Source: Candidatus Micrarchaeota archaeon
Lineage (GTDB): Archaea > Micrarchaeota > Micrarchaeia > Anstonellales > JAGGTN01
Assembly: GCA_021163645.1 (NCBI GenBank)
Contig: JAGGTN010000020.1
Location: forward strand, 1 to 50,282
Reading direction: 5' to 3'
DNA length: 50,282 nucleotides
This document shows positions 3,001 to 26,493 of the stretch, in pieces. The stretch's first letter is position 1. Each line of letters opens with the position of its first letter. A model generated the notes under the pieces. That model saw only the letters and a program-made list of their open reading frames with translations. It searched no databases and was not told the DNA's origin. Both the position numbers and the translations under genes were made by a program.

Positions 3001-6000
3001 TTAAATCAGACCAAAACGGTAACTTTGTCTATCCGTTCGCTACGAACTGTGGAATGCTCGGAACATGTACCGTTAAAGCTTACGATGATTTCTGCGAGGC
3101 CACGGGCACTTACACGGTCAAAACGCAAGCTGAGGTTTGCGATGACGGTGTCGACAATGATTGTAACGGAAAAATAGACTGTGCTGACCCTGCATGCATC
3201 GGGTCTGCTGCATGTACCTTCGAGGTATCCGATTGTTTCACTATAAGAAATTCGAACGGTGGGACCTGGGTACTCAAGTCGGACATAAAAGCAAACGATA
3301 AATGTATAGAACTCGGTTTAAAGCCTGGAGCGGTGGCAGTCATTCGCTGTGAAGGTCATACAATAACCGTTAATACTACCGGTAAAACGGATGCCCATGC
3401 GATAAAAGTCTTCAGTGAACAGACAAGGGATGCTGATATTAAATTAGAGAATTGTAATATTAAAATAGTTGGTAATGGTAACGGTAATGCTGTTTGGGCC
3501 TTCAACCTTAACAAGCTTGAGCTTTATAGTATCATTGCAGACGTGGCTTCTGATAACAGTTATCCAGTTTTGGCGCAGTATATTAGGAACTTGATTGCAG
3601 AAAACCTTAACATTACTCACGATGGAGACAACGCTACGGCGTTCAAGGTGCAAGAAATATCTAATTCAATAGATGTAAACAATGTCCAACTCACCAGTTC
3701 AGCTAACATCAAACAAGGTGATTTCAGAAAGAGCGTGTTTGTGAGTGACGTACATCCAGATCCTTCTCTTCCATATAAGAAGAGAAGAATATCAAATATT
3801 TATGAGCATACTAAGTTTAATAAAGCAGTAATCCTAGATTCAAGCAACTTGGTGTTGAACGATTGGAAATTCCATGATCATCAGGATGAAGGTCTGGCGA
3901 TATTGGGTAAATCATCAAATATAGAAATGACCAGATTCAATCTTTCGAATAATAATATAGGTTTATACATCGGACAAGATGTGGAAAACGTATCTATTGA
4001 TTCTTCATACATGTGTAATAACCGTGAGAAGGATGTATTATCTGCTGATATTTCTGCATTAAATGTTGGAGCAGATGTTACGTGTACAAAATCTTATCCA
4101 GAAAACATCTGTCCGAAACAATGTCCTATGGAGGATACTGATGGTGATGGAGTGCCTGATGACCAGGACAATTGTGTAAAGGTCTACAACCCAGACCAAA
4201 AAGATATTGATGGTGATGGATTGGGTGATGCCTGCGATAATTGTGTGGATGTTTACAACCCAGACCAGATAGATAACGATGGTGACGGTCTCGGGTACGC
4301 ATGCGAGCCCGGTGACCCGAACGTTTGCGATTACACGTTCGACTGTGATGGTGACGGAGTCTGTGACGGTCCACGTTCACCAGAGGCACCTGCAGTCTGT
4401 GGCAACGGAATCTGCGAGTCTGGTGAGGATTATACTACTTGTCCCTCAGATTGTCCTGCTCCATCATGCAAAGATACAGATGAAGGAATCGATTATTATA
4501 CCTCTGGTTCAGTTATGACGTCCTCGGGAAAGGAGTTCAAAGATTACTGTTTGGATAACAACAATCTAATGGAGTATGCGTGTAACCCAGATGGTAGCGA
4601 AAGCACTTATCAATACGATTGTTCAAAAGAAGGTTTAATATGCCAGGACGGTGCATGCGTTAAAGGAGCACAATGCATTGAAGGTGCGTCTTGCTCGAGC
4701 GATGATGATTGTTATGGTGGAATATGCATATTAACTTCGTCAGATGATATATGCTACGCTAAACCTATTTACTCTGATTCTGATTGTAAGATGTTCTGTA
4801 ACAATTTCTCTGGACTCAACGAATACAAATGGGATGGTGCTGAATCATGCGAATGTTACGGTTCGATAACAGAGGATGAATGCGTTGAGTCGGCTGCACA
4901 GTATGGTTATGGATACTCTTATTTCCCTGGAACGACAACAGGCACATGCGACTGCCCAATAGAGTGTTTTGAGTTGCCTTATTATGACTGTGAAAGGACT
5001 TCTGAATGCAGATGGTGTAATGGAGCATGTTTTTCATCAGATACAATATGTCAAATAAAAGTATGTAGTGGTGATAAACCAATAACGTGCTATGATCAAG
5101 CATGTTCTGATCATCAAGAAACTTACATACGTCAGACATGCATTGCCGAGGGTGAGGAGTGTAATACAGAACTGGTTGATTGTGGTACTTCTCCTATTTG
5201 CGGTGATGATGTTTGCGAAATTTATGAAGATTATAATAACTGTCCAGAGGATTGTCCACTGCCTGAATGTTCTGGTACACAGACAGATGATTGCTCCACA
5301 TTACAGGTAACGAATCCGAAATCTGAATGCCAGAATTATTATTCAAAGTCTGGGTTCCAGTGTACTGTTAACAAGGATGCAACTGGATGTATGGATAGTG
5401 AACAATGTACAGTTAAACTTTCTGAAAAAGAGATTGTTAGCTTAGAAAAAGGGAAGGTATCAAACTTGTTTAACCTATTCACATTACCTTTCATTTTCGG
5501 TTTAGGGGTGTTTATGATGAAAAGGAAAAGGAAACTGTCTTCCTCACTTTTAGCACTGGTAGTAGGGCTGATGTTAGTAACTTTTATTATAGGAACAGTG
5601 AATGCTGCGCTTCCAGAATGCTATGGTGGTGAGTCTAAGTCATGCAAAGAGATAACAGATGAAAAGACTTGTACTAATGCTTATGTTGCCTATAACAATA
5701 CATATTACCAATGCGAATGGGATCCTGTCAACTATCTTTGTCTCCTCAATACTATACCAGAGCACGAATGTGCGCCGCCTGCCCAGCAACAAGAGATATG
5801 TGATAACGGTGTTGATGATGATAGTGACGGGTTGATTGATTGCAAAGACCCGGACTGTGCAGATGATCCAGCATGCCAAGGTTGTTCACAATACACTGAT
5901 GAAACATCGTGTAACAATGACCCAAACTGTGAATGGTATCCTGGAACTCCTGAGTATGTTGGATGCGAAGGTGAAGCTAAACATTGCTCTGTGTTCTCAA

Positions 6001-9000
6001 ACGAAGATGAATGTTTGATGCAGAAGGGATGTTCATGGTTAACCGAGTCATTGAGTTATTATGCATGCATCGCCCAAGGATACTCCTGGTGCGAGTTTGA
6101 TGGTAGATGCGATTCCGAAGGCCCATGCACTAGTATTCTCTGTAAGGCATTAGCTAAATGTGAAGACCCAGTAGATTGTTCTGAGGTAACTGATCAGTCG
6201 TCTTGTGAATCCTACAGTACCTGTGCTTGGGACTCTGATAAAGGAGTATGTTATGAAGAGGTATTGTGCAGATCATACAAAGATGAAGATTCATGCACTA
6301 CGGCGGGTTGTAAATGGAAAGTAGTCAACTACTACGCACCTTGCACAGAAGTATGCTCAGATAACACGTCTATATGTGTCAAACAAAGCACAACGTGTAT
6401 ACCTGAGAATGAGACTGTCCAACCTACACCTGTCGACTGCAACGCTTCTCCACCCTCTGGATGCACTGGTGAACCGTTGAGTTGCTCAGCTGTAAGTAAC
6501 GAGAAAGAATGTATCAACCAGATGGGTTGTAGTCCAAAGTACAAGACTATTAGTGGGTACTGTGCAGAGAAACCTTCTTCAACATGTACATCTTCACCAA
6601 GCGGTAAAGACGAGTTCTACAACGAATATCCGTACCCATCTGATATTAAACCACCTATTGATGTGTACGGTGCGCCTATATGTATAGATGATGATTATTG
6701 CGACTTAAACTGTTTCCTCAATGCTTCACCAGATTATCCAGGTGCGTTAACATATCCAATTTGGGATTCTGATTGTTGTCAAGATAATGATAAGGACGGT
6801 TATACAGGTTCAATACCTCATGAAGCACCGTCAGAATTCCAATCATATTGTACTGATGATTGTGATGATTATAATGCAAACGTTCACCCCGGAGCAGAAG
6901 AGTTGTGTAATGCTATAGATGATGACTGTGATGGTTACGTTGACATGTTCCCGGGGACGAGTGTCATGCCGAAGGACTGTAAGCAGTGGAGTAATGATGA
7001 AGCTGCGTGTTTAGAAAACTCTGACCAATGTACTTGGGCAAGCAAGTTTACCGGTTGCGACCCGGTTAAAAAAGAATGTTCTGTTTATTCTGATAACGAG
7101 TCGTGCGAATCAGACGTTTTCTGTGATTGGGTGGTTACACCTGAGACAGGTTCGTGCGTAGCACCTGTGGAATGCAAAAAACTTGAAGACGAACAAACAT
7201 GTTCCCAGTATCCGACGTGCGCATGGGAACCGAACCAACAGGTATGCTATAAGGCGGTTGACTGTACAGGTTATAAAACAGAAGCTGATTGTGAAAATGC
7301 GGGTTGTACATGGCAGGTTAAACCAGCCAGGGAGTATTGTGGTTATGATTTAGGTATAGAAACCTTCTGTAAACAATGGACAACCACTGACGAGTGTAAC
7401 AATGCATTGTACGAAGGAGTGAACGTGTGTCAAGCAACACAGGACACGAGGTGCTATAACAACTGTTATGATATAACCGATCAGGGAACATGCGATACAA
7501 CAGAGTTCTGCGCATGGGTAGGCTCAGGAGGTACCTGTTATGCTGACTGTTCTGGTTTCACTGATGAAGCAACATGTAACAAGTATGACCCATACTGTAA
7601 ATGGGATGGTAAAGAATGCGTGGACTCAGGCTTAGGAGAATGCACAGAATACACGGATGAAAAAACCTGTACTTCTAACTCACTGTGCAAGTGGAAATCT
7701 GAGACCGTAGGATCATGTCAGCCAGCACCAGAGGAAGGCGGGCCCGTACCTTTAACTCAGTACTGTTATACCGGGCCAAAAGGTACCGACGGTGTAGGTA
7801 TATGTCATGGCGGGACACAAATATGTACTTCTGGTGCATGGGGTGTTTGCGAAGATGAAGTTACTCCTCAGGTTGAATTGTGTGATGGAATAGATAACGA
7901 TTGTGACGGGAAGTATGATGAGGATTTTGATAAAGACAATGATACAATTACTATATGTGGAACGTATACAACAAATGGTTCTTCTGTAGAGCCAGATTGT
8001 AATGATAATGATCCTAACGTGTGGCATCTTATGAAAGGATATGCCGACAATGATCATGACGGTTATGGTACTGGTGAACTGTTGGATGTATGCTCAGGGT
8101 TGACATTACCTATTGGATATTCAGACATTTCTGGTGATTGTGATGATGATATGAGTGATGATCCAACTGATATAACCTGCCCATCTGATCCAAGTAATTG
8201 CACTGAGGATACTGGTGAATGTGCTATATGCATACATCCTGGAGCAATGGAAATACCGTGCGATAACATAGATCAAAACTGTAACGGACACTGGGAAAAC
8301 AAGACGTTTACTTCGCAGTTATTAGTCAAACCTGAAAAGGATAAGAAATATCATAAGTGTAGACCCTGTAGTACGATTCATTCATTGACAATAAAATATA
8401 TTGGTGATGATAATGCAACAGAGGTATATGTTTATGATAAGAAGAATAACTTATTAGGGATGTATCCAATTGTTAACAGAACATTCACAGTAACAAATCT
8501 TGCCAAACCTGAAACAATATTCCAAATAGGATCTTATATACAGTGGATTCATACAAGTTGTTCTAGACCGATCGGTCCTGGGTATTTGTTTGGCAAGCTT
8601 AAGATAATCTCATGGAATGCTGCAGATCCAAATACTTGTGATGGCGATGGAGGATCCAAGTATTATGATTGGACTGGCAGTAAATGGAAGTTCTACAATG
8701 ACTATTATCCAGATGATCTAGTCATTGGAAATAATGAAATAGGGTTGGCAGATTTTGATAATGACGGCCAAGATGAACTCATAGTTAAGGAGAAGAAATA
8801 CAGACATACTGATGATATTAATACATGGTTCTATGAATGGGATGGTGATTCATGGGTTGAATATGAACATTCGACCAATGATGGTTTGCCATTACAGGGC
8901 AGGTATGAAGTAGCAGCATGTGATATATTAGACAGTAATGGACAACCTGGTACAGATGGTGTTCCAGAGCTTATAATAACAAGAGAAGGGTTCAGTAAGG

Positions 9001-14561: not shown

Positions 14562-15134
14562 ATGATGGAAGATATAATCAAACAGCTTAAGGAGATGGAA
14601 ATAGTTCAGACCGAAATGCTCAATGATATGAGAGAGATTGTACGTCTCTGTTCGAGAGCCATTAAGAAAGTGCATGCTAGGGATTATGATGCTGCAAAAG
14701 AACAGGCAGGAAGGATAAAGGAGCGATTGAGAGGTTTGGTATCAATGGCAGAAAAGTATCCTAATTTTAATTCATATCGTGTTCATGCTGAGCAAGAATA
14801 TGTTGAACTTATGACTTTTCTATCATGTGTTAAGAATGATAAGATCCCTGATGTAAACGAACTAAATGTGCATTATCAATCATATTTATTGGGTTTGTTA
14901 GATGCCGTCGGTGAGTTGAGACGCGCATTGCTTGATAGGTTGAGAGATGATAATATCAAGGATGCTGAACGTATGTTCAAGTATATGAACGAGATATATG
15001 AACTTACTGTTCCTATTGTTTTCTCAGAATCGCTACTTCGCGGGTTTCGTGGTAAGCAAGATGTTGCTCGCAGGCAGGTGGAACAGGCACGCAGTGAGAT
15101 TACAATGGCTTTGATGTTTAAAAATGCTAAGTAA
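14562..15134 (+). CDS. Translin-family protein
   Basis: HAEQEYVELMTFL..YLLGLLDAVGELRRALLDRLR..AERMFKYMNEIYELT matches the archaeal translin/TRAX pattern (QEYvEA..YllGl.D..GEL.R). Confidence 0.7.
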   Translation: MMEDIIKQLKEMEIVQTEMLNDMREIVRLCSRAIKKVHARDYDAAKEQAGRIKERLRGLVSMAEKYPNFNSYRVHAEQEYVELMTFLSCVKNDKIPDVNELNVHYQSYLLGLLDAVGELRRALLDRLRDDNIKDAERMFKYMNEIYELTVPIVFSESLLRGFRGKQDVARRQVEQARSEITMALMFKNAK

Positions 15135-15164: not shown

Positions 15165-16232
15165 GTGAGAGATAACACTTTTGTGAGAAATAATATTCTA
15201 TTGTTTATTCTATTCTTAATTCCAGTTGTTTTGTTGTTTATGGGATGCTCTTTTATGGAACATAATCATATCGGAAATCAATCGGCGAATCAGACGCAGG
15301 GTAATGTAATCAATAATACTGCTAGCCAAACAGCAAATAGGTCAGGCTCTATAGTTGCCAATCAGACATATGTGAATAATACGGATAGTATGAATGATAC
15401 GAATGTTCAATATTCTACAGGTGAGTTGTCATATACTTATGCTCCATTATCAAATATTACTGTATGTTTCATTGATGTTGGATATGGCGATTCTGTTCTG
15501 ATTAAAAAAGGAGATTTTGATATGCTTGTTGATGCTGGTAATGAAGCGTCAGGACCACATGTGGTTTCACTGTTAGATCAGTTAGGTGTTGATGATATTG
15601 AAATCATGGCATTGAGTTCTATGACTGATGACAGGATGGGTGGTATGAAATCCGTACTACAATCATATAATGCCGAACAGTTCTGGGATAATGGAGTAGA
15701 TTATCTTGAAGACAATGAGGACTATAGTTATATTTTAGATGTGTTGAATAATAGGCATACAAAGATAATCCATCCAACGAGAGGATATCATTTGTATGAA
15801 GATGGTATCTCAATCGATGTTCTTAATCCTCCATCAAATCGTTTCAATTCTATCAATAATCCTGAGGCAGATTCTTTAACATTGCTCATCAAGGATAGGA
15901 ATTTTACTTTGTTCCTTTCAGACTTATCCACCACTACTCAGAACAATCTTATCAGTGATTATCCTAATATTACAGCAAGGGTAATGAAGGTTTCACAACA
16001 TGGTGGTGGGAGTGTAGGAGTAGAGGAGAGAGTAGGCTCGTTCTTATTTATAAGTAAGCTTAGACCTGATATTGCTGTTGTATCAGTGGGTCCTAATGAT
16101 AGGGGATTACCCAATCCAACGATATTAGAATCATATAGACTGCATAATGTTGATATTTATAGAACTGATACACAAGGAACTATATGTATAACGAGTGATG
16201 GCTATCATTTAAATGCAACAACAAGCCGATGA
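15165..16232 (+). CDS. Lipoprotein with a ComEC-type metallo-beta-lactamase-fold domain (His motif degenerate)
   Basis: Lipobox LLFMGC followed by an N/T/Q-rich linker. VCFIDVGYGDSVLIKKGDFDMLVDAGNE is the ComEC-MBL signature. The HxHxDH position reads SSMTDDRMGG, and a later VSQHGGG is present. GTG start preceded by GAGGTGG. Confidence 0.65.
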   Translation: MRDNTFVRNNILLFILFLIPVVLLFMGCSFMEHNHIGNQSANQTQGNVINNTASQTANRSGSIVANQTYVNNTDSMNDTNVQYSTGELSYTYAPLSNITVCFIDVGYGDSVLIKKGDFDMLVDAGNEASGPHVVSLLDQLGVDDIEIMALSSMTDDRMGGMKSVLQSYNAEQFWDNGVDYLEDNEDYSYILDVLNNRHTKIIHPTRGYHLYEDGISIDVLNPPSNRFNSINNPEADSLTLLIKDRNFTLFLSDLSTTTQNNLISDYPNITARVMKVSQHGGGSVGVEERVGSFLFISKLRPDIAVVSVGPNDRGLPNPTILESYRLHNVDIYRTDTQGTICITSDGYHLNATTSR

Positions 16233-16237
16233 ATTTC

Positions 16238-16396
16238 TTAATCTTCTTTTCCAAATTCTTTCTTTGGTTTAACAAAAATATATCCACATCTCCAGCACCG
16301 GTATGCTCCAACGGGATTCTCAGCTCCACATCTGGGGCATTTCTGCATCTTTTTAGAGTCTGGTTTTATCTTCTTGATTAAACTCTCTCCTGCCAT
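16238..16396 (-). CDS. 52-aa zinc-ribbon protein, L40e-like paralog
   Basis: My own translation (below the track's size cutoff): MAGESLIKKIKPDSKKMQKCPRCGAENPVGAYRCWRCGYIFVKPKKEFGKED. It shares C-x2-C-x-x-N-x-VG-x3-C-x2-CGY-x3-(K/R)PKK with the L40e gene at 27965. Confidence 0.55.
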   Translation of the reverse strand: MAGESLIKKIKPDSKKMQKCPRCGAENPVGAYRCWRCGYIFVKPKKEFGKED

Positions 16397-16471
16397 GATA
16401 TTACCTCATGATTTACTTACTGATTCATTTTATGGTTGAAGACTTATAAATTTATTGTATATTCTTATTAT

Positions 16472-17422
16472 ATGTGTGATGATGTTTTGTATAAACCAAT
16501 GCTTGCTGAGCAAGGAAGTGAGAGAGACCTTGCTAGAAAGGGATATATTTTTGAGCCGAAACTCGACGGTACTAGAGCTATATGTTATTTGAACAATGAA
16601 TCAATCACGATGATCAACAGGCGTGGTAGGGATATTACATATAGATATCCAGAATTTGATTTCTCTGGAAAGGTAAAAGCAAAGACGTGCGTTCTTGATG
16701 GAGAGATTATTGTTTATGATGCTGACGGTAATCCTGATTTTAATCTTCTTCAAGGTAGGGAACAGTTGGATAATAAGATTATGATAGAACTTAGAAGCAA
16801 AGAAAATCCTGCAACTTATGTTGTGTTTGATATATTAATGAAAAACGGTAAAGACCTAACACATCTATCATTAAAGGATAGGAAGAGGATATTGGATAGG
16901 ACAATATTGGAGAGCAAGGATGGATTTAATACCATCCAAAAGATTTTCTTCACAAAGAATGGTAGAAGCCTTTATCGGATTATTAGAAAGCATAAACTTG
17001 AAGGTGTGATGGCGAAAGATATTAATAGTAGGTATTATCAAGGAGAACGAGTTCCTGCGTGGTTGAAGATAAAATACGTTAAAACGATTGATTGCATTAT
17101 TGTAGGTTATGTTCAAGAGAAAAGGATTATATCATCGCTTGCCCTTGCTCTGTATGATAATGGGAAATTGAGATATGTTGGAAGAGTAGGGACAGGAGCT
17201 ACAGAGGAGTTTTTAGAGAGATTGTATGAGAAATTAAAGGCGATTAGAGTAAAAAAGCCATATGTTGAATATTCTGATAGCAAGGATATTAAATGGGTTA
17301 AACCACGATTCGTATGCGAAATTAAATATTTAAATTTTACTAAGAAAGGAAAATTAAGAGCGCCAGTGTTCTTGAGATTGAGAGATGATAAGCCATTAAG
17401 AGATTGTGTTATTGAAGCATGA
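16472..17422 (+). CDS. ATP-dependent DNA ligase, minimal (adenylation + OB domains only; LigD ligase-domain-like)
   Basis: Motif I EPKLDGTRA, motif III YVVFDIL, motif IV EGVMAK, motif V AWLKIK, motif VI LRAPVFLRLRDDK. The start at MCDDVLYKPMLAE is preferred over the track's TTG at 16436: an A/T-rich TATA-like box (cttataaatttatt) lies ~20-30 nt upstream. Confidence 0.85.
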   Translation: MCDDVLYKPMLAEQGSERDLARKGYIFEPKLDGTRAICYLNNESITMINRRGRDITYRYPEFDFSGKVKAKTCVLDGEIIVYDADGNPDFNLLQGREQLDNKIMIELRSKENPATYVVFDILMKNGKDLTHLSLKDRKRILDRTILESKDGFNTIQKIFFTKNGRSLYRIIRKHKLEGVMAKDINSRYYQGERVPAWLKIKYVKTIDCIIVGYVQEKRIISSLALALYDNGKLRYVGRVGTGATEEFLERLYEKLKAIRVKKPYVEYSDSKDIKWVKPRFVCEIKYLNFTKKGKLRAPVFLRLRDDKPLRDCVIEA

Positions 17423-17547
17423 ATCACGTAATACTCCATAGAATACATGTTACCATGAAGCGCAATTACAGAGTATATGACATGCAAAAATAGAAACATA
17501 ATGCAAAGGTTTAATAATTTAAAATTATTCTAAATATTGGGATTTAT

Positions 17548-18330
17548 ATGAAATCTGTATGGGATGGGTCATTATCTTTTGGTTTGGTAAATATCCCTGT
17601 TAGATTATATCCAGCTATCGAGAGCCAAGCATTAGGTTTTAGGCTCTTGCACAGTAAATGTCATACGCCTTTAAAATATAAGAGATGGTGCCCGAAATGT
17701 AAGGTTGAAGTTACATGGGATGAGGTTGTTAAGGGCATTGAAATCAGAAAAGGCGAATATTATGTTCTGACGAAGGAGGATATGGAAGAGCTTAAGCCAG
17801 AGAAGACGGATACGATTGAGATAGTAGAGTTTATTGATGCCCAACAAATTGATCCAATATATTTTAACAATCATTATTATATTGCACCTAAGGTGACTAA
17901 GGAGAAAGCATTTTTCTTGTTTAAAGAGGTTCTGCAGCTCACAGCTAAGGCGGCAATAGGTCGTTTTGTAATGCGTGAGAAACAATATGTGTGTGCGATA
18001 GAATCGTATAAACGCGGTCTGCTTCTTACAACATTGAATTATAGGTATGAGATTAGAGATATAGATAAGATACCAGAACTTAACATAGTTCCTAAGCTTA
18101 AGAAGGAAGAGCTTGCTCTTGCTAAGAAGATCATTCATAAATTATATAGAGAGGAATTTGACATGGGAGAGTTCAAGGATACGTTCGCTGAAGAACTCAA
18201 GAAGATGCTTGAGTTGAGAGAGAAGGGTAAGATTGTTAAGGTTGGTGAAGTTGGAAGAGTAAAAGGTAAGGGAAGGAAGAAAGAGAAAACACTCATTGAT
18301 ATACTCAAAGCAAGTTTGAAACAGGCATAA
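17548..18330 (+). CDS. ku: Ku protein (prokaryotic NHEJ DNA-end-binding protein)
   Basis: N-terminus MKSVWDGSLSFGLVNIPVRLYPA and ..LHSKCHTPLKYKRWCPKCKVEV match the bacterial-type Ku signature; basic C-terminal tail. Confidence 0.85.
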   Translation: MKSVWDGSLSFGLVNIPVRLYPAIESQALGFRLLHSKCHTPLKYKRWCPKCKVEVTWDEVVKGIEIRKGEYYVLTKEDMEELKPEKTDTIEIVEFIDAQQIDPIYFNNHYYIAPKVTKEKAFFLFKEVLQLTAKAAIGRFVMREKQYVCAIESYKRGLLLTTLNYRYEIRDIDKIPELNIVPKLKKEELALAKKIIHKLYREEFDMGEFKDTFAEELKKMLELREKGKIVKVGEVGRVKGKGRKKEKTLIDILKASLKQA

Positions 18331-18535
18331 GCAGGACGAAGATGCGTTAATGATGCAAAGTTATCAACACGAAGAATCAAGTTAATAAACTAGAGTAAAC
18401 ATGAGTGGGCGAATGCGTAAGGCGAAATAAAACGAAATAAAATGAATTAAAGCGAATAAAATATGTAAAAAGTAAAAGTAACTGGAAACGCACACCCAAT
18501 ATTCATTTATAAATGTTAGTATGTTGATTATTTTT

Positions 18536-19603
18536 ATGTCTCATTCAGCGATTGGGTTGCCGCTTCATCCAGGTAAAGCTCCAAGATGGTTGTTTGGAAG
18601 GATGGTTAAATTATCTAAGCTTATCTCTAAGTATATCATTAATGAGTATGGCGAACAGGTTTTTATGAAGCGTCTTGCCGACCCATTATGGTTCCAATCA
18701 TTTGGGTGCGTGCTTGGATTTGATTGGCATTCATCTGGTTTGACCACAACAACAACTGCTGCTTTAAAGATAGCTTTGGATGAAGAGAATCTCGGCATAT
18801 ATGTAGCTGGTGGCAAAGGTAGGACATCTCGCAAGACACCAGAACAGATCATTAATTATGGTGATAGGTTGAGAATATCTGAAAAGGTGAAAGAGCGTCT
18901 AGTAAGAACAAGCCGTTTGACTGCTAAGATAGATAATTCGTGCATACAGGATGGGTATCAGCTATATCATCATGTTACTATATTTGGAGCTAACCATGCA
19001 GTAGTCATCCAACAGGGTATGAATAGCGATAGGTTGTATGCGAGGAGATATCATTGGTATGACCCTCATAAGAGTATTGATGTTATCAATTCAGAAAATG
19101 AGAATATTATATCACATAGGGTTAACGGCCATGATAATGATGGGCATGGTTCTATGAATGTGCTTGACCTAGCATCTCCAAAAAGCAAAAAATCAAGAGA
19201 ATATTCGTTGGATATAATTGAAGATATGCCGAGACATCATCGCGTTCTATTGAAATATCTCACAGATAAAGAAATTCAGATGTTATCCAATTTGAGTGGT
19301 GATATGTTTGATAATTATGAGGAGCTTTTACTTGTCCATGGAATAGGTCCTAAGAAACTAAGGGCGTTGGCTCTCATATCACAGTTGGTATACGGGTCAG
19401 AATTGGATTGGAATGACCCAGTTAAATTTTCATTTGCTCATGGTGGTAAGGATGGTCATCCATTTCCAGTTGATAGGGAAACCTATGATTATAACATATC
19501 TTTATTATCAGAAGCTCTTGATTATAATAATGATATATCTGGCAATAAGAACTATGATGTTAAGCATGCGATTAAAAGGTTATATAAGATTATTAAGAAT
19601 TAA
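18536..19603 (+). CDS. Conserved hypothetical protein, DUF763-like, with a helix-hairpin-helix motif
   Basis: LPLHPGKAPRWLFGRMVKL..RLADPLWFQSFGCVLGFDWHSSGLTTT resembles my recollection of DUF763. LLLVHGIGPKKLRALAL is a classic HhH (hGIGpk) motif. The ATG at 18536 lies ~25 nt after atttataaat. Confidence 0.45.
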   Translation: MSHSAIGLPLHPGKAPRWLFGRMVKLSKLISKYIINEYGEQVFMKRLADPLWFQSFGCVLGFDWHSSGLTTTTTAALKIALDEENLGIYVAGGKGRTSRKTPEQIINYGDRLRISEKVKERLVRTSRLTAKIDNSCIQDGYQLYHHVTIFGANHAVVIQQGMNSDRLYARRYHWYDPHKSIDVINSENENIISHRVNGHDNDGHGSMNVLDLASPKSKKSREYSLDIIEDMPRHHRVLLKYLTDKEIQMLSNLSGDMFDNYEELLLVHGIGPKKLRALALISQLVYGSELDWNDPVKFSFAHGGKDGHPFPVDRETYDYNISLLSEALDYNNDISGNKNYDVKHAIKRLYKIIKN

Positions 19604-23511: not shown

Positions 23512-24459
23512 TTAGTTTTTTTTTCCTTCTTTCAATATATTCTGTTTTTCTCTTATATTGTGTTTATCCTTATATTCTTCCTTTCTTTTAATCTCATTTA
23601 ATATTAATTTTAATGCGTCTTCTGATAATTGTTCGACAAAACCCTCTTTTATAAAGTATGGAACATCGATATCTTCCTCCAAGGCAAGTTCAGCTACCTT
23701 AGTCCTATTAGATTTCTTATTTGTTATTTCTATCACATCAAACGAAAATGAAGCATATCTTAAAATCTTCTCATCTGTAATCGTTCCACTAAAATACCAT
23801 TCTCTCATAGCAGCATCTCTGTCAACTTTTATCGGTATTCTTTCAGTCCAATAGCCATGATAAAAACCTAATTTAACTGAGTACACTTTATCTTCACATA
23901 ATTCTATGATTCCCTTATTATAGTTGAAATATCTTAGTTCAATAGGTTCAACAAAATTTTTATCAATTGTGTATGAAAGAAAACCTCTTGAACAAAGATC
24001 TGTATAAACCAAAACTGTTACCCCTCTTATAATTGATTCAATTGAGTAATACTTATAATCTAAATAATTTTTGGTCTCATCAGATTCAAAAAAACTATCG
24101 AAAATTGTTTCTTTATTATACCAAGCATATGAATTAAGTTTTTTTTTCAATCTTATCGGAAACCAGACAAAATAAATTTTAATATATTGTTTTAATTTTG
24201 TTTCTTCTAATGAATTAAAATAGTACCTAAAATCACTTACATTCCTTCTAAGGACTTCTAATGTGGGATAATTTTCCATTAAATTTATATGGTTTTTCAA
24301 AAAATATTTGAAGGTAATGTAGTCTCTGTTGCTTAAATCTAACAAATCTTTATCTTTAAGATACTCAAGCAAGTACCGTCTAACCAATTCCTTGTGTTCA
24401 TAACCTCTGACATGATTCCAAATCATATTTACGAGTTGTTTATTTTTAGAACCTCCCAT
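23512..24459 (-). CDS. Hypothetical protein (orphan, Lys/Tyr/Phe-rich)
   Basis: Long uninterrupted ORF in a very AT-rich segment, divergent from the TrmB-like gene. No motif recognised. Confidence 0.5.
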   Translation of the reverse strand: MGGSKNKQLVNMIWNHVRGYEHKELVRRYLLEYLKDKDLLDLSNRDYITFKYFLKNHINLMENYPTLEVLRRNVSDFRYYFNSLEETKLKQYIKIYFVWFPIRLKKKLNSYAWYNKETIFDSFFESDETKNYLDYKYYSIESIIRGVTVLVYTDLCSRGFLSYTIDKNFVEPIELRYFNYNKGIIELCEDKVYSVKLGFYHGYWTERIPIKVDRDAAMREWYFSGTITDEKILRYASFSFDVIEITNKKSNRTKVAELALEEDIDVPYFIKEGFVEQLSEDALKLILNEIKRKEEYKDKHNIREKQNILKEGKKN

Positions 24460-24558
24460 AATCTCACTAATATTTTCTACCCTTCAGTATATTTTAATAT
24501 ATGTCACCTTACAATAAGTTGACAAAACTAATATAAATTTTGATGGTTGTATATATCT

Positions 24559-25881
24559 ATGGAGTATACATTTCTAGAAAAGTTAGGTATTACTAAAAAT
24601 GAGGCTAGAATATATATAACTCTCATAAACGAAGGACAAATGACTATAGGTAATATAATAAAAAAAGTAGGACTTCATAGAGGTTCTACTTATAATATTA
24701 TTCAAAGGTTGATTGAGAAAGGTTTAATTTCATTTGTGGATAAAGAAAATAAAAGATATTATCAAGCTTCAAATCCAAGAATATTATTTAGTTTAATAGA
24801 GAAAAAGGAAAAAGAGTTAGACTTAGAAAAGAGATATATAATAAAACTAATTCGTGAAATTAAAGATAGAAAAACAATTGCTAATAAATCGGTTGATATA
24901 AGTGTAACGTTGGGATTGAAAGCATTTAAGAACTTCTTTCGAGAAATGCTGAATGAATTAGAATCCACTGGCGATGAATATTATTTTATCGGGAATTCAA
25001 ATGAGTTGATAAGACATCTAGGGGTAAATTATTATCAGTATACGCAAAATAGAAAAGCAAAATTAGGAATTAAATCTAAGATAATTCTTGGAGAAAGTTC
25101 AAGAAAAAGTCAGGAGAAGGTTGTGGGTAAGGTTCGGTATGTTGAAGAAAATATTATTACTCCAGCTTCTACATGGATGTATAAAAATAAGATTATAATC
25201 GTTGTTTGGGATATTAATCCAATTATTATATTAACTATAAAGAGTGAATCAGTTTTTAGATCATATAAACGATTTTTTGATGTATTATGGAATAAACCAA
25301 CATATTTTTCAGATCTGGAAAATTTTGAAGGTGAATATATTAGTTTAATGAAGAATTGTAGATATTTGAAGATAATGTCAAGATTGAATTCAGTTCCTTT
25401 TATAATATATCCAAAAAAAGAAAATGAATTCGTAGAAATGCGTAGATACGTAAGGAGAAAAAGGAAAACTTTTTACAGCCTAAAGTTTGATGTAAAAGTG
25501 TTAAAGATGTATAAAAGGTTATGGAAAAGAAAAATACCAACTTATTTTTTAATAAATCTAAGTGGAATTGAGTTTTTATTTAATATTATGATGAAAAAGA
25601 AAGGATACAAATGGATTGTAGATTATGTAAATAAATTAAAAAAAGAAATTAAAAGATATAATGCAAAGGTTAAAGTAATAAAATATACTCCAATATTTAT
25701 TTATATCAGTCATAACAAATTAATAAAAGTGTTATCAAATCGTTCTGAAAATATCTATGGAATGATTAGTCTTGACCCTAGAATAATAAATGAATATAAT
25801 AATATTTTTGATGCTTATTTTGATATGGGCGAAGATATCTTTGATTTTCTTGAAGAATACTTAAAAAAAAATAAGAAATGA
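24559..25881 (+). CDS. TrmB-family transcriptional regulator with an extended C-terminus
   Basis: N-terminal winged HTH LEKLGITKNEARIYITLINEGQMTIGNIIKKVGLHRGSTYNIIQRLIEKGLISFV..RYYQASNP. The C-terminal half appears to repeat the effector-like domain. ATG at 24559 preferred over TTG at 24547. Confidence 0.7.
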   Translation: MEYTFLEKLGITKNEARIYITLINEGQMTIGNIIKKVGLHRGSTYNIIQRLIEKGLISFVDKENKRYYQASNPRILFSLIEKKEKELDLEKRYIIKLIREIKDRKTIANKSVDISVTLGLKAFKNFFREMLNELESTGDEYYFIGNSNELIRHLGVNYYQYTQNRKAKLGIKSKIILGESSRKSQEKVVGKVRYVEENIITPASTWMYKNKIIIVVWDINPIIILTIKSESVFRSYKRFFDVLWNKPTYFSDLENFEGEYISLMKNCRYLKIMSRLNSVPFIIYPKKENEFVEMRRYVRRKRKTFYSLKFDVKVLKMYKRLWKRKIPTYFLINLSGIEFLFNIMMKKKGYKWIVDYVNKLKKEIKRYNAKVKVIKYTPIFIYISHNKLIKVLSNRSENIYGMISLDPRIINEYNNIFDAYFDMGEDIFDFLEEYLKKNKK

Positions 25882-25909
25882 ATATAAAAAACATAAGAGT
25901 TAGAATCAA

Positions 25910-26493
25910 TTATCCACCTATGCTTTTATTTTCTTGCTCTGCTTGCATCTTTTTTATTATTTCATTTAAATCGCATATGGTTCCGCCACTCACTTGGAAT
26001 TTATCATCGCCAAAGTTGTTTAATTCACAATGATAATTGGTTTTGCCTTCTATCTTCTCTGGTGATACTGCTTCGGTTGCCGTTTCATTCCCAGTTATGC
26101 TCTTGTTCATCTCCATTTTTATCCAATCACAGCCAGGAATAGTTTCCTTTCCTTTGGATGATTTCAGGTATACCGTGTCGCCTTTTATGATTTCAACAGC
26201 AGACATTTGGTCAGATGTTATCTCTATCCTGATATCCTTACCTTTTACATACATAATGGCATGTGTTAGTTGTCCTGATCGCTGATCTGTGTAATCAAAT
26301 GTACACTTAACTGGTTTACCTAGGCGATTATTGATTTCCATGCCATTGTATCCAAATTCTGTGTTTGGGTTTGATTTATATCTTGATTTTGTGTTTCATT
26401 TGTATTAGATGTATTTGTTCCTCCTGTGCATCCCAGGGTCATTAATGATATGAACGTTAACCCTAAGAATAGGTATATGTATGTTTTTTTCAT
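25910..26493 (-). pseudogene. Lipoprotein gene split by a frameshift (signal peptide/lipobox ORF plus 143-aa domain ORF)
   Basis: From 26493, the minus strand reads MKKTYIYLFLGLTFISLMTLGCTGGTNTSNTNETQNQDINQTQTQNLDTMAWKSIIA*. The 143-aa ORF (25910-26341) is in another frame, and its frame stays open upstream (..NPNTEFGYNGMEINN). The two overlap at ATGGCATGG. Confidence 0.5.

Follow-up and report, generated by a model that had tools for sequence, protein, structure and literature searches.

A minimal Ku-ligase gene pair next to a conserved DUF763 gene in a small Candidatus Micrarchaeota genome

Analysis of a 50,282-nt stretch of Candidatus Micrarchaeota archaeon DNA (contig JAGGTN010000020.1 of assembly GCA_021163645.1; hereafter the window) was centred on three genes of the forward strand that lie in the order Lig-Ku-DUF763 and code for an ATP-dependent DNA ligase, a prokaryotic-type Ku protein and a member of the uncharacterised family DUF763 (PF05559), which occurs in archaea and some bacteria. 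An earlier note had read the first two genes as a minimal pair for non-homologous end joining (NHEJ) and had proposed that the DUF763 protein, because of its position, takes part in end processing or bridging. The locus is best explained, and in our view quite probably, by two separate modules that stand side by side, a minimal Ku-ligase kit and an older resident DUF763 gene. The Ku-ligase pair is an ordinary minimal NHEJ composition in a new lineage and at an unexpected genome size, and not a new system. The assembly comprises 0.89 Mb in 57 contigs and is 88.6% complete.

The ligase is a stand-alone enzyme of the LigD type. Its translation carries the well-established nucleotidyltransferase motifs as EPKLDGTR (motif I, with the KxDG lysine), VLDGEIIV, YVVFDIL, EGVMAKD, WLKIK and LRAPVFLRLRDDK, and a Pfam scan placed DNA_ligase_A_M at residues 9-201 and DNA_ligase_A_C at residues 218-307 and gave zero matches beyond these two; the earlier description of an enzyme with all the motifs and with adenylation and OB domains only is thereby borne out. 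The protein scored 264.5 bits against the NCBI equivalog TIGR02779 (NHEJ_ligase_lig), above the cut-off of 227.75, and its best PDB match was the ligase domain of M. tuberculosis LigD (1VS0/6NHX), while the polymerase (POL) domain (TIGR02778 / PF21686) and the phosphoesterase (PE) domain (TIGR02777 / PF13298) were not found in it. Translation could also begin at a TTG at 16436. Elsewhere in the genome, contig C47 carries a 605-aa reading frame for a second ligase, which is 53% identical to a three-domain (N+M+C) replicative-type ligase of a relative. Since a separate enzyme of the replicative type is present, the small ligase is an extra, dedicated one. That it instead works as a general or back-up replicative ligase with no specific part in end joining, Ku being adjacent by descent, would agree with the economy in enzymes often seen in reduced genomes and with its lack of extra domains; we hold this to be very improbable, given the ligase on C47, the score above the NHEJ-ligase cut-off and the fact that at least 11 further phylum genomes have the small ligase paired with Ku.

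The Ku gene follows on the same strand, as the earlier note had it, and begins 125 nt after the ligase stop codon. The encoded protein matched PF02735 with 151.5 bits (cut-off 25) and, over its full length, TIGR02772 with 257.1 bits (cut-off 150), and it resembles in sequence the solved bacterial Ku chains 9vnq, 8v53 and 9i91. Its nearest named relatives are Woesearchaeota/Nanoarchaeia proteins with 55-73% identity. Within residues 35-51 (LHSKCHTPLKYKRWCPKC), His35, Cys38 and Cys48 are invariant among 12 DPANN Ku proteins, so that the Ku core may contain a small metal-binding knuckle. Ku was identified in 15 of 301 genomes sampled from the phylum, whose lineages are not phylogenetically independent, in line with the sporadic occurrence in archaea that had been claimed.

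The view that the pair is minimal, with no Pol or PE protein in sight, also withstood genome-wide searches, in which the LigD polymerase and phosphoesterase models gave no candidate, either in the window or elsewhere in an assembly that spans 0.89 Mb and is 88.6% complete. LigD-Pol was above cut-off in none of the 301 phylum genomes, and stand-alone PE was present in 22 of them and in none of the 15 Ku genomes; these absence calls rest on incomplete metagenome-assembled genomes, and a PE-Ku overlap of 0 against about 1 expected by chance is not significant. Genes for RadA, Ogg and an ExoIII-family (EEP) nuclease are present in the genome, as is one for Rad50 that has a Mut7-C nuclease gene as its neighbour, and therefore homologous recombination and generic end-cleaning enzymes are available. 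In the mechanism that we propose, Ku would thread onto the broken ends, bridge them and recruit the dedicated LigD-type ligase, which would seal those ends that are already ligatable, while any end cleaning would be left to general enzymes whose genes lie in other parts of the genome, that is to the ExoIII-family nuclease, Rad50 with its partners, and replicative enzymes.

Not every member of this Ku clade is so reduced. On long contigs, its closest relatives have the arrangements Ku-Lig-PE, Ku-PE-Pol-Lig, Ku-Lig with a convergent PE, or Ku-MazE-PIN-PE/Pol-Lig; PE occupies the slot right after Ku-Lig in the cassette of the closest relative, and a Pol gene usually follows Ku-Lig in farther metagenomic cassettes.

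Other genes were also observed behind Ku-Lig. DUF72 (PF01904) and UDG genes follow it at two loci (L286, 6694-7242 and 7899-8603; L118, 3353-4075), and as DUF72 occurs in two unrelated contigs it may be another unrecognised accessory gene. Locus L288 of Candidatus Tiddalikarchaeum anstoanum (3039-6979) has the order Lig-Ku as in the window, and behind the pair come a Lys-rich orphan of 452 aa and an ExoIII-family nuclease; the orphan has no relative in the locus sets or in the window genome, and contig C38 of the window genome encodes a nuclease 45% identical to the one at L288. At metagenome locus L173, Ku-Lig is followed by a radical-SAM gene to which none of the DUF763 neighbours is related.

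Archaeoglobus Ku and ligase genes are reportedly adjacent. Comparison with bacterial two-component NHEJ, made up of a Ku homodimer and LigD (M. tuberculosis Rv0937c/Rv0938, B. subtilis YkoV/YkoU), showed a Ku of the same family, a ligase closest to the LIG domain of M. tuberculosis LigD and adjacent genes, whereas the window ligase is without POL or PE, fused or separate, and the host is an archaeon of about 0.9 Mb; bacterial NHEJ has been associated with large genomes and slow growth (PMC7719229). The archaeal NHEJ of Methanocella paludicola consists of stand-alone Ku, Lig, Pol and PE proteins (Bartlett et al. 2013 as cited in PMC7719229). As far as it is described there, that system has stand-alone components and a prokaryotic-type Ku in common with the window, but in place of the complete set of four only Ku and Lig are present here, Pol and PE having been found neither in the incomplete assembly nor in any of the sampled Ku genomes of the phylum. 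A Ku accompanied by a LIG-only ligase corresponds to the class named 'non-conventional NHEJ' by Sharda et al. 2020, and Archaeoglobus has this composition (PMC7719229). The window pair is identical to it in composition and differs in that its Ku falls in a DPANN (Woesearchaeota/Nanoarchaeia-type) clade and in that the gene order is Lig-Ku.

Two published Ku surveys, which covered 19 archaeal Ku proteins or sets of cultured genomes, include no DPANN members, and the literature search returned nothing that substantively connects DPANN with NHEJ. Among archaea, Ku-dependent end joining is considered rare; the occurrence of a Ku-ligase cassette in about 5% of a sampled DPANN phylum, in genomes below 1.5 Mb, extends the known range of the pathway and illustrates to what extent the system can be reduced.

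Comparison of gene neighbourhoods indicated that the Ku-ligase pair and DUF763 have different histories. Ku is followed directly by Lig in 11 of the 14 other Ku genomes of the phylum sample, with varied flanks. The order Lig-Ku of the window stands against Ku-Lig in 39 of 40 other scored cassettes, the scored exception being L116; the Tiddalikarchaeum locus lies outside the 40. Two congeneric genomes, G039 and G199, share the arrangement RadA-x-HAD-Thg1 followed by DUF763 ... RNR, while Ku-Lig is present in G039 only, inside the divergent Thg1/DUF763 intergenic gap. In genome G005, a member of the window's order, the distance between DUF763 and gatD-gatE is 2.3 kb and Ku-Lig is found on another contig, behind a HAD hydrolase gene. 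The synteny of G039/G199 and of G005 shows Ku-Lig to be a detachable cassette and DUF763 the resident gene: Ku-Lig moves between sites and DUF763 stays in place with or without it. The pair is accordingly a small cassette placed at different points of different DPANN genomes, and DUF763 is most likely an older, widely conserved gene with its own putative promoter that remains near gatD-gatE whether or not Ku-ligase is there. No mobile-element signature was detected around Lig-Ku: meaningful flanking repeats are absent, and the GC content does not differ from that of the neighbouring sequence.

The order HSP20 - AA kinase - translin - MBL - Lig - Ku - DUF763, MBL denoting a metallo-beta-lactamase-fold gene, recurs in two near-identical assemblies that come from other samples, so that an assembly artefact is excluded. 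A separate TATA-like box stands before each of the three genes (Table 1), and this, together with intergenic gaps of 125 nt (ligase-Ku) and about 205 nt (Ku-DUF763), suggests separate transcripts. The listed DUF763 open reading frame (ORF) extends from 18521 to 19603, and its true start is most likely the ATG at 18536, since the database copy and the homologues begin there and the TTTATAAAT box lies 26 nt upstream. The position of this box suggests a separate, leaderless DUF763 transcript. The Ku-DUF763 intergenic region also contains, at 18423-18461 and about 45 nt upstream of the TATA-like box, four tandem copies of the 10-nt unit CGAAATAAAA; two strain variants retain the repeats, with a 7-nt indel just downstream, and the array may be bound by a regulator. 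TATA-type promoters, the GatD and GatE genes downstream of DUF763 and RadA elsewhere in the genome are consistent with an archaeon.

The earlier note had asked for a survey of DUF763 neighbourhoods, and the general linkage to NHEJ genes that it expected did not appear. Two sets of loci were fetched and their genes called by a simple longest-ORF script: 80 DUF763 loci from across the prokaryotes with flanks of up to 10 kb, and the 80 metagenomic Ku loci closest to the window Ku, 55 of which had at least 1.5 kb of flank on one side. Neither Ku nor a LigD-type ligase was near DUF763 at any of the 80 DUF763 loci, and DUF763 was near Ku at none of the 80 Ku loci and at none of the loci of six close Ku relatives on long contigs. 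DUF763 was not beside ku/ligD on the rhizobial replicons and plasmids that were checked, nor was it linked to ku/ligase at a Methanocellales locus. Among these rhizobia, Sinorhizobium meliloti, which also has Ku/LigD, carries DUF763 on pSymB, and in searches of control genomes Sulfolobus acidocaldarius had DUF763 and gave no Ku match. An unbiased tally of neighbours at the 80 DUF763 loci gave no dominant partner family.

The window DUF763 protein is a regular member of its family. It matched PF05559 with 361.7 bits (gathering score 35.5) over profile positions 4-319 of 319, and it is 45-50% identical to the Methanobacterium or bacterial proteins. Alignment of 184 archaeal and bacterial members revealed 43 positions conserved in at least 97% of them, among these D63, H65, S66, S67, K94, D133, H146, R171, H235, D294, K305 and D306, and all 43 are kept by the window protein; the pattern looks like that of an enzyme active site. 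Only the genomic position next to Ku-ligase is unusual for the family (2 of 103 phylum loci, 0 of 80 elsewhere). The helix-hairpin-helix (HhH) motif pointed out earlier (LLLVHGIGPKKLRALAL) is present: its score against PF00633, 19.5 bits, falls short of the Pfam cut-off of 24, the G-x-G-P hairpin is kept in at least 99% of the 184 members, and a helix is found on each side of it in the predicted structure. The AF2 model is of moderate confidence, with a pLDDT of 73.6 overall and of 85-96 in the core blocks. It gave no ground for a nuclease or polymerase fold, which the earlier note had suggested looking for, or for any other known fold: Foldseek comparison of the model with the PDB gave no match below E = 0.4 and sequence and profile searches of the PDB gave zero matches. 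In the literature DUF763/PF05559 was found only as an entry in a distribution table of a single paper and COG1415 was not found; the family is present in many Ku-less archaea (PMC554113). It is among the best conserved uncharacterised families common to archaea and bacteria.

Several observations weigh against two independent modules. A Pol or PE gene could sit in the missing part of the genome, and the TATA-like boxes are predicted ones in an AT-rich genome. The slot beside Ku-Lig in related cassettes is often taken by genes for the processing of ends or lesions, among them PE, Pol, UDG, RadA and an ExoIII-family (EEP) nuclease. DUF763 was present in 108 and Ku in 15 of the 301 phylum genomes, and 13 genomes had both; DUF763 is thus found in 13 of 15 Ku genomes against 95 of 286 Ku-less ones (Fisher p about 0.01-0.02 at genus level, the lineages being non-independent), while Ogg, used as a control, is not enriched with Ku (5 of 15 against 40% overall). 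These enrichment figures ignore much phylogenetic structure, seven of the Ku genomes belonging to one family. The two genes adjoin in two of the 15 Ku genomes only, that of the window and G039, and in the latter they are part of a tightly packed operon, Ku-Lig-DUF763, whose genes overlap or are 4 nt apart (4 nt in front of the DUF763 ORF). As gene order is opposite, the flanks are different and the Ku proteins are 40% identical, the two juxtapositions are independent, and the chance of at least one direct adjacency among the 12 other genomes with both genes is about 0.03. We regard this as a weak but real hint of a link between DUF763 and Ku, so that the idea of DUF763 as an end-processing partner, left without the general linkage, keeps weak support from co-occurrence and from the G039 operon.

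That hint is what one alternative builds on, in which DUF763 is a true accessory of minimal NHEJ: as an enzyme guided by its HhH and dependent on metal it would clean the ends, or else it would bridge them, in place of the PE/Pol missing from DPANN lineages that have Ku and ligase only. The independent operon of G039 agrees with it, as do the enrichment of DUF763 in Ku genomes that have neither PE nor Pol (0 of 15), the PE gene that fills the slot after Ku-Lig in the closest relative's cassette, the many invariant His, Asp and Lys residues next to an HhH motif, and the placement of DUF763 between stand-alone PE and Rad50 in genome G124. On the other hand, DUF763 is carried by the 95 Ku-less phylum genomes and by most archaeal lineages without Ku, adjacency was found at none of the 160 surveyed loci and not in rhizobia rich in Ku/LigD, the position of DUF763 is ancestral and independent of the cassette, a promoter-like box of its own precedes it here, and no nuclease or polymerase fold is recognisable. 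The accessory role is therefore judged improbable, at the level of a rather long shot. A related reading, to which we give a low probability as well, is that DUF763 is a new-fold, HhH-guided enzyme cleaning DNA 3' ends or lesions in several repair pathways, which would supply end processing where DPANN Ku-ligase cassettes are without PE/Pol; this would explain the G039 operon, the enrichment in Ku genomes and the placement beside Ogg-type glycosylases, RadA, PE and Rad50.

Analyses of 103 phylum loci showed that the neighbours of DUF763 are mostly lineage-specific housekeeping genes, CysRS, TyrRS/TrpRS, HisRS, SecY, a beta-CASP RNase-type protein and two families without a Pfam match. Repair genes recur as well: Ogg-type glycosylases lie directly upstream of DUF763 in one genus of the phylum and in two Woesearchaeota and nearby in an actinobacterium, RadA lies directly upstream (-1) in two families, and a replicative ligase is within four genes in one genus. 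Repair genes make up roughly 3% of a genome, and their total at up to 5 kb from DUF763 does not clearly exceed this figure, which is a rough estimate and not a computed background. On balance DUF763 appears somewhat more probably than not to be an enzyme that works generally in DNA repair or DNA-end chemistry and has no specific tie to Ku-dependent joining; the window locus is a further repair-gene neighbourhood in a pattern that is scattered, and the function is not established thereby.

The opposite reading, that DUF763 is unrelated to DNA repair, acting for instance on RNA or tRNA, and came to adjoin Ku-ligase by pure chance in a gene-dense genome, takes its support from the tRNA synthetases, SecY and beta-CASP protein that are its commonest phylum neighbours, from the Thg1 and gatD-gatE genes, from Trm56 beside it in Methanobrevibacter and from the repair-gene total that is not clearly above the rough expectation. 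Conservation of the HhH hairpin speaks against it, and so does the recurrence of same-strand repair neighbours in unrelated lineages (Ogg-type in at least three lineages, RadA at -1 in two families, Ku-Lig twice). We consider it unlikely, though less so than the dedicated NHEJ role.

Some individual DUF763 loci were recorded in addition. Locus L182 (G124:C22:1-9000) contains a stand-alone LigD-type PE, an amidohydrolase, DUF763, a Mut7-C nuclease and Rad50 within 7 kb, and the phylum-sample search gave no Ku match in this genome. The two families without a Pfam match are f10 (L216:3604-4947 and 13 other loci; about 340-450 aa), directly upstream of DUF763 on the same strand in 14 genomes, and f11 (L257:1567-2679 and eight other loci; about 330-370 aa), directly downstream on the same strand at 7 of 9 loci; they could be lineage-specific partners or reflect plain synteny. 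The exact alphaproteobacterial SOS box GTTC-N7-GTTC was not found in two rhizobial DUF763 loci.

Table 1. Positions of the genes and putative promoter elements of the Lig-Ku-DUF763 locus in the window
Feature	Position	Strand	Remarks
Translin-like gene	14562-15134		upstream of ligase
MBL-fold gene	15165-16232		upstream of ligase; 355 aa
TATA-like box of ligase gene	16444..16453	+	about 25 nt upstream of ligase ATG; putative, read from the sequence of an AT-rich genome
Stand-alone LigD-type ATP-dependent DNA ligase	16472-17422	+	316 aa; adenylation and OB domains only; catalytic Lys in EPKLDGTR
TATA-like A/T box of Ku gene	17510..17527	+	21-38 nt upstream of Ku ATG; putative, read from the sequence
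Prokaryotic-type Ku with basic C-terminal tail	17548-18330	+	260 aa; PF02735 and TIGR02772
TTTATAAAT box of DUF763 gene	18506..18514	+	26 nt upstream of DUF763 ATG 18536; identical in two strain variants
DUF763 (PF05559) protein with conserved helix-hairpin-helix	18536-19603	+	355 aa; enzyme-like conservation

The translin-like and MBL-fold genes that had been noticed just upstream of the ligase were confirmed. The MBL protein combines an N-terminal hydrophobic segment, an Asn/Gln/Thr-rich linker and a ComEC-type metallo-beta-lactamase domain (partial TIGR00361 match, 60 bits), and its probable role is that of a nuclease, extracellular or anchored in the membrane, that serves DNA uptake or scavenging and stands outside NHEJ. 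A reading of the locus as a defence system was rejected, as PADLOC gave zero matches for Lig, Ku and DUF763. Between the MBL and ligase genes, at about 16238-16396 on the reverse strand, lies a 52-aa zinc-ribbon-like ORF with a faint DZR match, which is called as a gene in both strain-variant contigs. Further along the window the GC content falls to 0.255 at 24001-26000, compared with 0.32-0.36 around it.

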